Virus record (IMG/VR): IMGVR_UViG_648276647_000004
Span: 1 to 43,461 of that record
From: a virus
Lineage: Duplodnaviria; Heunggongvirae; Uroviricota; Caudoviricetes
Direction: 5' to 3' (one strand)
Length of the DNA stretch: 43,461 bases
In this document: piece after piece, positions 3,001-6,000 of the stretch
Layout: the number at the start of each line of letters is the position of its first letter
How positions within the stretch are numbered: the first letter of the stretch is position 1
Position numbers: made by a program

Positions 3001-6000
3001 GATAGTGCTCATGATGCCTCTCCTTTACATGCTTCGGTGACGTTTATTCCAGCGTTGTGCAGTGCCTCAAGAACCTGATGCTGCCTGTAAACCATTTCAG
3101 TGTGGTAAGGCTCGTCAAAATCGACGCGATGCAACATGCTATAGCATTGCGGAAGCACAACCTCCCGCAACTCCAGCTCAGCAATGCGCTTCTCTGCGGC
3201 TTCCAGCTTCTCGCGCATATCGTCAACGTACTCGACCAGAGATCCGCCAGCAGGAATTTCGCACTCCTCGACCAGTTGGAAGTAGATATCAGCTGCGGCC
3301 CGTGTGTTGCTATGCCTAGCGTCGCCCATCTCACCTTCACGAAGAGCATCGCGTTCGGCGGTAAGATTGGCTATTTTGCTGTCTTTGCCTTCCAGCTCAA
3401 CGCGCAGCTTCCCTACCGTTAGCGCAATTTCCTCGTTCTCCTGGTCGCGGGATTTGATGTATTGCTGGTTCCTTTCCCGTTCATCCAGTAGTGCCAGCAC
3501 AACCTGAGGTGTGACCTTCATACGAAATGCCAGCAATTTTTGTGGTGTGGCTGCTATTTTTATTGCTTCTGCCGCATCACGCAGTGCCTGATAGTCAATT
3601 GTCATTCTCGCCATCCTTCACAGTTGTAATCACTACAGCCTTCAAAATCATATGGGCTGTACTGCCAGGAGATTTTTCCGCAATGCGGACAATTCCAACG
3701 CACCTTCCCGCTTCGCGACTTCTTTCTTCTGTTCTGCTCTTTCAACCAGTCAGGCATGACCAAACCTGCGCCCTGAACCATTGTTCTGCGGTTAAAGTTA
3801 TTGATATTGAACGTCCTGCGCTTTGCTGCATCAGCAATGGAAAATGGCAACCAAACTATTCCTGGTTCGTTTTTGTTGGCGACGCTAAAGATGGTCGCTT
3901 TACTGAAGTCATCTGTTGGCAATCCACCGTGTTGAAGCTAGTAAACATCGTTGCCGTTCCAGCTACCTTTTTTGTAGGCCACATACGCAGTGCAATCTGA
4001 CTCAATCAGGCTTTCTGTAGGGATGTACTGGCAATCAACGTGCCACACTGCCATTGCATCCACGCTATCAGCGCAAACAGGCTGATCGATATCTCGCCCA
4101 CAATTCCAGGCTTTTTGGGCTTCTTCCAGCGTGTAAACATGAGCGCGATCGATATCAGAACTGTAACCATTGCCGTTATGGCAATGGAATGAAGCGTTAT
4201 TGCCCACAGTTTCACGCGAGCACATCATGTAAAAACGGTTAGTCACTGGCTGCCTCCTTTGCGCCACATCGCATTCAGATATTTGTTTTCATTCACTGAT
4301 GGAAAAGAATTTCTCTTAAGTAATTCCTCTCTCGATGGCATTGGCTTTACGCGTTGGCGAATAATCATTTCTGCCGGAAGAATGCCGGGATTGTATGCAA
4401 GTCCTCTCATGATTTACTCTCCACGAACTGGTCAATAGCCATGCTAAGTGACATACCTAAAGCTTCGATATGCTGCTGAATATCCTGTAGCGTCCGCGCC
4501 TGAGATAACAGAATTTCACGGTTGCATAACTCTTTAACCAGATGCTCAAACTTGCTGTAATAACCGATACGGCTTAGTGTTTCTTTCCCTGCATTCTCGC
4601 CTTCTTTGATAATTCCTCTTTCGCTAAGAATCAGATCGTGTTTGGTTCCGGTAATAACGTATTTTCCGAGGTCGATGTTTAGCTTCATTGTTTTCATTGT
4701 TAATTCCTCAGTCATTACTGATAGCGCCATAGCGTGAGCGGTAATTACGCAGGCGCGGGTCGATATATTCAGGGAAGTGGGTATATGTGGCTTTGCGGAA
4801 TGGTCGGATTGATGTCTGGTAAATTCGCTCGCGTTCTTCTTTCTCTGCAAGCCATATACAGTGGCGAAATTCCTTTTCCTCTTTCGTTTCCTGCGGTAGC
4901 GACATTATCCGATCGTAGTTTTTTCTGAATTTATCCAGCACCTCCGATACGGAATTGCCGGAACAGCGGCGCGCGTCATCCGCACCATACAGAGGCGCTG
5001 GCATGGTTTTCTCCTGTTGATTATTTAGCTAACTTTTTCCAGATCGCTGAAACGTATTTGGCTTGGTGAATGGCATCATCAAGCGCGTTGTGGCGAGTTC
5101 CTTTGAATGGCATATCTCGCTTAGGGTCGAATCCTATTACCTTCCCAAGTTCGACGATTGTTCTTACGTCGCGGTCATTCCACCACTGCCACGGAACTGG
5201 CTGCCCTGTCAGCGAATAACTGTTTCGGAGAATAACGCAGTCAAATGATGCTCCATTCCCCCAAACCTGAACGAATTTGTGGTTAGCGTTCTTTATGATG
5301 AATTCAGATAACCATGAAAGAGCCGTTGAAAGCTCCTGAGTGTTGCTGGTTAGCGATTTTCTGGCTTCTTCACTCTGTTCCAGCCACCATAAAATCGTTG
5401 AAGCGTCAGGACGCGCTCGATATCGCATTGATGATTCAAGCGAGATATTTACCGAGAACTCTTCTCCTGTTTCTCCGGTATTCGGGTCAAAGAATACCGC
5501 CCCAATAGAAATAACTGGCGCGTATGGCCCGTTGCCCATTGTTTCAAGGTCAACCATCAAGTGATTCATGTAAGTCCTTAAATTGCGTGAATAGCGTGAC
5601 GAGGGAAGGGGAGAGTTACTGGTGCAAAGGGGATATCGTCGTCAAAATCCATCGGAGGTTCGTTGTGTTGTGCTGGTGATGATTGCTGCTGTGGCTTCTG
5701 TGATTGCCTGCTGGATGCTTGTTGTTTGCTGTCGCCAATGCCGCCAAGCATTTGCATCACACCATTAATTCCGACATGAACCTCGGTTGTGTAACGGTCT
5801 TGCCCTGACTGGTCTTTCCACTTTCTGGTTCTCAGCATTCCCTCGAAATAAATCTGATCACCTTTTTTCACATACTGCCCCACGACCTCAGCCAGTTTCC
5901 CGGATACAGCAACACGATGCCATTCAGTCAATTCCTTTTGCTCGCCAGTATTTTTATCTCGCCATTGTTCTGACGTGGCTATTGTCAGGTTAGCGAACGC

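Follow-up and report, generated by a model that had tools for sequence, protein, structure and literature searches.

An amber codon interrupts a conserved early gene of a lambdoid prophage in Escherichia coli M605

The interrupted gene and its start

The DNA analysed here is the virus record IMGVR_UViG_648276647_000004 of IMG/VR (Caudoviricetes), taken at its full length of 43,461 nucleotides and called the window in the following; it is apparently a complete lambdoid prophage. On its minus strand lies a gene that is interrupted by one in-frame amber codon, and this codon is the subject of our analysis. Positions 4267..3602 form a single reading frame of 222 codons, including both stops, and the TAG at 3940-3938 is the sole internal stop. 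A preliminary description of the sequence, made by a model, had reported this frame from two open reading frames (3938-4267 and 3602-3922), and it was right about the coordinates as well as about the frame that the two share. The 222 codons are, however, the extent of the frame and not that of the gene: As annotated in relatives, the gene is shorter and extends over 3602..4246, from a GTG at 4246 to a TGA at 3602, thus comprising 214 codons plus the stop.

Judged from the sequence, the true start is the GTG at 4244..4246 and not the GTG at 4267. The former is indicated both by the sequence and by the annotation of near-identical relatives, it partly coincides with the TGA that ends the preceding DUF2737 gene (GTGA), and a Shine-Dalgarno sequence that can be read directly, AAAGGAGG (4253..4260), precedes it by 6 nucleotides. 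The GTG at 4267 lies within the DUF2737 gene, upstream of this ribosome-binding site. With the start at 4246, the gene has 214 codons and the TAG is codon 103. The still-translated codons 2-102 (3941..4243) would, together with the start codon, give a 102-amino acid N-terminal fragment ending in WNGNDVY, and a gene call in the Logan assembly for precisely this product also begins at GTG 4246. The C-terminal half, codons 104-214 (3605..3937), would remain untranslated; compared to the nearest intact alleles, there is no change except at nucleotide 308 of the gene, which is the second base of the amber codon. The preliminary description stated that the part downstream of the stop contains no ATG. 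This holds for the vicinity of the TAG, where TTG 3922 is the sole candidate start. Farther downstream there is an in-frame ATG (3779..3781); it lacks a Shine-Dalgarno sequence and encodes Met156, an invariant internal residue in the family alignment. In the deposited annotation of strain M605, the locus is represented by two hypothetical proteins, one of 109 amino acids from GTG 4267 (EGI16804.1 / F4SWY3_ECOLX) and one of 59 amino acids from ATG 3781. These two proteins are an annotation artefact that has already spread into UniProt (F4SWY3).

In a compact genome such as this one, neighbouring reading frames often share a frame, and this does not by itself reveal a broken gene. In the late region of the window (24433-28026, plus strand) four consecutive genes lie in one frame, separated from their neighbours by a single stop with an ATG within a few codons, and this control shows that same-frame adjacency alone is no sign of gene disruption. 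It is the homology evidence that makes the case for a broken gene at 3602..4246 real, not the frame. A second same-frame pair on the minus strand (9738-9199 and 9198-8887) was considered as another broken gene and rejected: The downstream translation is of low quality and has no gene-like features.

The amber codon compared with intact relatives

An intact relative, WP_000184762.1 of E. coli VTB97584v, has one base that is not the same as in the window over the 771 nucleotides compared. Its product matches the PHROG family phrog_2457 over residues 1-214 (E 4.7e-119), and this match assigns the broken gene to phrog_2457, an uncharacterised family. In the plasmid-prophage P7 this gene is known as upf87.6 (Upf87.6, YP_009914568.1), with a full-length profile match, the same motifs and the same four-cysteine C-terminus, and further copies are found in many lambdoid prophages as well as in P1-like elements and Av-05-type records. 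At the level of DNA, the gene region of the window is 94-99.9% identical to the P7 and E. coli copies. Intact genes of 645-657 nucleotides are annotated in P7, Av-05, 18-1-2, E. coli VTB97584v and E. coli E41. The preliminary description had proposed a comparison with prophage homologs, and these turned out to be single proteins: Among 5.8 billion protein clusters, 160 homologs were detected, and those covering the full query are uninterrupted and have about 209-225 amino acids. The sources of the 160 homologs are Escherichia, Klebsiella, Yersinia, Serratia, Pantoea, Moellerella, Acinetobacter and others. The short or partial-coverage homologs that we looked at turned out to be partial copies at contig ends, truncations, chimeras or apparent frameshift products, and in no case was a homolog found to be arranged as a pair of genes of which the second has a genuine start.

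The family alignment shows a conserved N-terminal region, the strongly conserved motif W-[ND]-G-N-D-V-Y-W, and a basic stretch followed by four cysteines. All of these features are retained in the conceptual translation of the window (FY..C.R..VG.N..FH...G.GY, W.GNDVYW and C-x2-C...C-x4-C), and only Trp103 is replaced by the stop. This residue, which belongs to the W-[ND]-G-N-D-V-Y-W motif, is conserved in at least 90% of the sequences in a 50-sequence alignment. The amber codon (3938..3940) differs from the tryptophan codon TGG by a G-to-A exchange at nucleotide 308 of the gene; the mutated base is 3939, an A on the minus strand and a T on the plus strand. P7, Av-05 and phage 18-1-2 have TGG at this position in an otherwise invariant surrounding stretch, and codon 103 is open in all relatives of phrog_2457 that were checked, in contrast to the window.

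The distribution of the two alleles was determined by several searches. A 61-nucleotide probe centred on the stop, run against E. coli complete genomes and phage records, found matches in 246 E. coli and 16 phage records; nearly all of these match at 60 of the 61 positions, and not one of them matches the TAG allele at 100%. The exact TAG 32-mer was found neither among the GTDB representatives (one genome per species, 185,579 species) nor in IMG/VR, and a TAG-containing 24-mer was not found in the JGI metagenomes. The TGG version, used as a positive control, matches 95 IMG/VR contigs. On 89 of these the gene is present in full length; it is intact at 214 amino acids in 86 copies, and the remaining three are open for 210-217 amino acids. 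Codon 103 is TGG in every one of the 86 gap-free aligned IMG/VR copies, and the gene is identical to that of the window apart from nucleotide 308 at five viral-contig loci. Taken over the E. coli and phage records and the aligned IMG/VR copies, the stop is conserved in no relative. Among close relatives, the ratio of nonsynonymous to synonymous polymorphism (pN/pS) is 0.21 overall; it amounts to 0.17 in codons 2-102 and to 0.26 in codons 104-214. The low values in both halves mean that both are coding sequence under purifying selection.

The stop itself can be traced to one strain. The window is 100% identical, TAG included, to scaffold GL883901.1 of assembly GCA_000176555.2 from E. coli M605. 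Moreover, a second assembly pipeline, Logan, reproduces the stop from reads: A 3916-bp contig assembled from the read set SRR024152 is 100% identical to positions 2288-6203 of the window and contains the TAG. In a search of 153 billion indexed gene positions, the 109-amino acid product was present on GL883901.1 only, and the exact 102-amino acid product on one other contig only, the Logan contig SRR024152_374. As far as the sequence collections reach, the TAG allele is thus private to a single strain.

Origin and consequences of the stop

With homologs that are single proteins of about 214 amino acids carrying TGG, nearest alleles only one base away and an allele private to M605, the suggestion of the preliminary description that the TAG is a fresh amber nonsense mutation has held up well. 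We consider it very probable that a private and very recent amber mutation has occurred in a dispensable gene of the early left operon of a lambdoid prophage that looks intact in all other respects. The gene is most probably an ordinary fresh pseudogene rather than the site of a recoding signal. In the lineage of M605, the conserved Trp103 codon would have turned from TGG to TAG by a spontaneous transition from G to A, which reads C to T on the plus strand. Translation from GTG 4246 would then end after Tyr102 and yield the 102-amino acid fragment, which lacks the C-terminal half with the zinc ribbon. Because so large a part of the protein would be missing, we infer that the gene is almost certainly functionally null. 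The pL-type operon would be repressed in the lysogen and the genes of the region would be dispensable for phage growth; the mutation may therefore have had practically no selective effect in the lysogenic lineage and have been fixed by drift. That the event was very recent is indicated by the C-terminal half, which carries no further lesion. As to the downstream genes, the 324 nucleotides of untranslated mRNA may weaken the coupling of translation to the Ead/Ea22 gene, which overlaps the broken one, and Rho-dependent polarity should be limited since N-modified transcription resists termination.

Some points weigh against this interpretation. The stop was seen in assemblies only, and the read set SRR024152 possibly consists of the same reads that underlie the deposited M605 assembly. 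Furthermore, a chromosomal amber suppressor may be encoded outside the 43 kb of the window. Finally, the loss of function is deduced from truncation at a conserved residue, and the N-terminal fragment may possess residual activity.

An error in sequencing or in the consensus, with a TGG and an intact gene in the real M605, would be compatible with an allele that is known from one strain only, that comes from an old draft assembly, and that differs from its relatives by a single base. We regard an error as very unlikely, however, as the TAG is reproduced by a different pipeline and its sequence context fits no common systematic error mode: The wild-type context TACTGGCT has no homopolymer run and neither a Dcm (CCWGG) nor a Dam (GATC) site. 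In addition, spontaneous mutations are most commonly G-to-A transitions, which also speaks against an error. The preliminary description had mentioned, as a less likely possibility, that the stop is suppressed or read through. In this case, an amber suppressor tRNA of the host or near-cognate decoding in the UAG-C context would give a useful full-length protein. Basal read-through of UAG in wild-type E. coli is about 0.1-1%, and the full-length yield from UAG-C would be a percent or so at most. The idea draws on the C that directly follows the stop; a 3' C is reportedly the weakest termination context in E. coli (a finding said to be that of Poole, Brown and Tate, EMBO J 1995). It also draws on the undamaged downstream half, but this is equally expected from a very recent mutation. 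Moreover, the stop is conserved in no relative and hence is no programmed feature, the only tRNAs of the window are tRNA-Asn(GTT) and tRNA-Thr(TGT), so that no suppressor tRNA is encoded there, and TAG terminates 8 of 50 crudely defined long open reading frames in the window, including those for 508 amino acids at 20544-22070 and for 591 amino acids at 32002-33777. Functional read-through is therefore extremely unlikely, and this suggestion of the preliminary description finds no support. With TAG as an ordinary terminator, no suppressor tRNA in the window, a single in-frame instance and a stop that is not conserved, a TAG-recoded genome is excluded for practical purposes.

The stop might also have split the gene into two parts that work together, an N-terminal fragment from GTG 4246 and a C-terminal fragment produced by re-initiation at TTG 3922 or ATG 3781. 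Known examples of a restart past a nonsense codon are lacI and rIIB of phage T4, TTG 3922 is located 15 nucleotides past the stop and is closely preceded by a GGTGG, and a predicted model of the protein has no regular secondary structure at about residues 104-129. Yet the GGTGG is only 1 nucleotide away from the TTG and thus too near to serve as a Shine-Dalgarno sequence, and ATG 3781 has none at all and encodes the invariant Met156 inside the protein. Nor is any relative arranged as two genes, and the stop falls within the most conserved motif and within a predicted beta-hairpin instead of at a linker. A functional split gene thus seems hardly credible to us. An internal promoter for the downstream half was also considered, and none was found between positions 3400 and 4500.

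The recent nonsense mutation that we favour is an instance of ordinary mutational decay of a prophage gene. As in other nonsense pseudogenes of prophages, a one-base change would have introduced a premature stop into a gene that is not essential and that the lysogen does not express. In comparison to other decayed prophage genes, the case described here represents the earliest stage: It shows a single lesion in an otherwise apparently complete prophage. The likeness to phages with programmed read-through or TAG recoding is superficial, as it is limited to an in-frame TAG with an open frame on either side; in contrast to those systems, the stop is not conserved, occurs in a single instance, stands in a genome that uses TAG as a terminator, and is accompanied by no suppressor tRNA in the window. 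Other damaged copies of the gene exist. E. coli FXCREC004 carries a frameshifted pseudogene copy (locus L006:1075-1718), and five homologs are deletion or fusion chimeras (P0019, P0048, P0090, P0094 and P0112), of which two share one unrelated N-terminus (MHQVVSFSGGRTSAYLV...) and the others contain out-of-frame segments. These copies fit a dispensable gene in a mosaic region, and the gene appears to be a frequent site of recombination and decay in the mosaic early left region. For the annotation of M605, it follows that the proteins of 109 and 59 amino acids should be merged into one annotated pseudogene. The locus provides a clean example of the first step in the decay of a prophage gene, one lesion with the rest intact, and is of little importance beyond annotation.

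The protein family and the prophage

The phrog_2457 family is widespread in enterobacterial phages and in P1/P7-like plasmid prophages and is under purifying selection, and no relative whose structure or function is known could be detected. A profile search against 1.84 billion representatives gave 858 matches at E<=1e-3. Searches of Pfam, NCBIfam and PADLOC with the family of the broken gene gave no significant match, a literature search for Upf87.6, phrog_2457, hkaG and the protein accessions retrieved nothing relevant, and among the longer distant homologs (P0196, P0210 and P0215) no informative domain fusion was recognised in a reading by eye. Close to its C-terminus, the protein has a zinc-ribbon-like motif, C186-P-H-C189-G...C204-x4-C209 (3620..3691, minus strand), which is preceded by the basic stretch NRRKKSRSGK. 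C186, C189 and C204 are invariant in the family alignment, and C209 is conserved in at least 90% of the sequences. The C-terminal zinc ribbon anticipated in the preliminary description is thus borne out with respect to the four conserved cysteines, which are accompanied by a weak similarity to eL43-type ribbons. The second pair, however, is C-x4-C and not C-x2-C as had been stated, and the spacing of the whole motif is C186-x2-C189-x14-C204-x4-C209. In a profile search of PDB sequences, the similarity of the C-terminus to the zinc ribbons of ribosomal eL43 is marginal (E 0.16 or worse). The predicted model contains two short strands in the four-cysteine region, and it places Trp103 as the final residue of a beta-hairpin with strands 88-97 and 100-103.

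Residues 4-47 and 86-125 look like two copies of a module that consists of a beta-hairpin and a helix (FYMMCSRETVGNNASFHC..G.GYSSDIDRAHVY as compared to YVAYKKGSWNGNDVYWLQ..GLPTDDFSKATIF). In this two-module reading, Trp103 corresponds to the conserved Phe20. An hhalign comparison of residues 1-80 with residues 81-160 gave P = 0.02 over 37 columns. An internal duplication in the phrog_2457 protein is therefore suggestive, not established.

The broken gene is part of the leftward early operon and is located downstream of the N antiterminator gene (8843-8418, minus strand). All genes of the operon described in the following are on the minus strand. Upstream of the broken gene there are a Rad52/22-type recombinase (6792-6085), the single-stranded DNA-binding protein SSB (6084-5578), an Rv2179c-like exonuclease (5569-5021), the anti-RecBCD protein Abc2 (5004-4708), a DUF5405 protein (4697-4407) and the immediate neighbour, a DUF2737 protein of 55 amino acids (4410-4243; Pfam PF10930, E 1.4e-32). 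Downstream follow an Ead/Ea22-like protein of 201 amino acids (3614-3009), which was identified from the annotation in relatives and from a match to Pfam PF13935 (E 2e-17), a DUF551 protein (3012-2338), and then xis and int. In other lambdoid prophages, the copies of phrog_2457 occupy the same position, between DUF2737 and Ead/Ea22. The Ead/Ea22 gene, with its ATG at 3614, shares 13 nucleotides with the end of the broken gene, and several neighbours in the operon overlap by 4-13 nucleotides, as is expected of translationally coupled genes. Between positions 3400 and 4500, neither a promoter-like site nor a minus-strand terminator-like site was found.

The integrase (1586-516, minus strand) is a lambda-type enzyme with an Arm-DNA-binding domain, and the immunity region contains a CI-like repressor (10841-10134, minus strand) and the N antiterminator as well as CII, O, a DnaB-type helicase and Q (16886-17431) on the plus strand. 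The tRNA-Asn(GTT) and tRNA-Thr(TGT) genes (17523-17678, plus strand) adjoin the 3' side of the Q antiterminator gene. At the left flank, positions 1-381 (minus strand) are 99% identical to DNA of a related contig that is annotated as the start of a pectinesterase-family gene; together with the integrase, this flank presumably reflects integration at the classical lambda attB, on the ybhC side. The right end of the prophage carries, on the opposite strand, a gene (40825-42672, minus strand) for a 615-amino acid protein in which an AT3 acyltransferase is fused to an SGNH domain. AT3-SGNH fusions include O-antigen acetyltransferases, and the gene may serve lysogenic conversion. According to the annotation of matching E. 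coli prophages, the late region (22001-43461) encodes proteins of the baseplate J/gp47 family and of the DUF3383, DUF1073 and DUF2213 families, which suggests that structural genes of the contractile-tail type are joined to a lambda/P22-like early region. Of 5426 complete E. coli genomes, no more than 4 carry at least 80% of this late region in one place.
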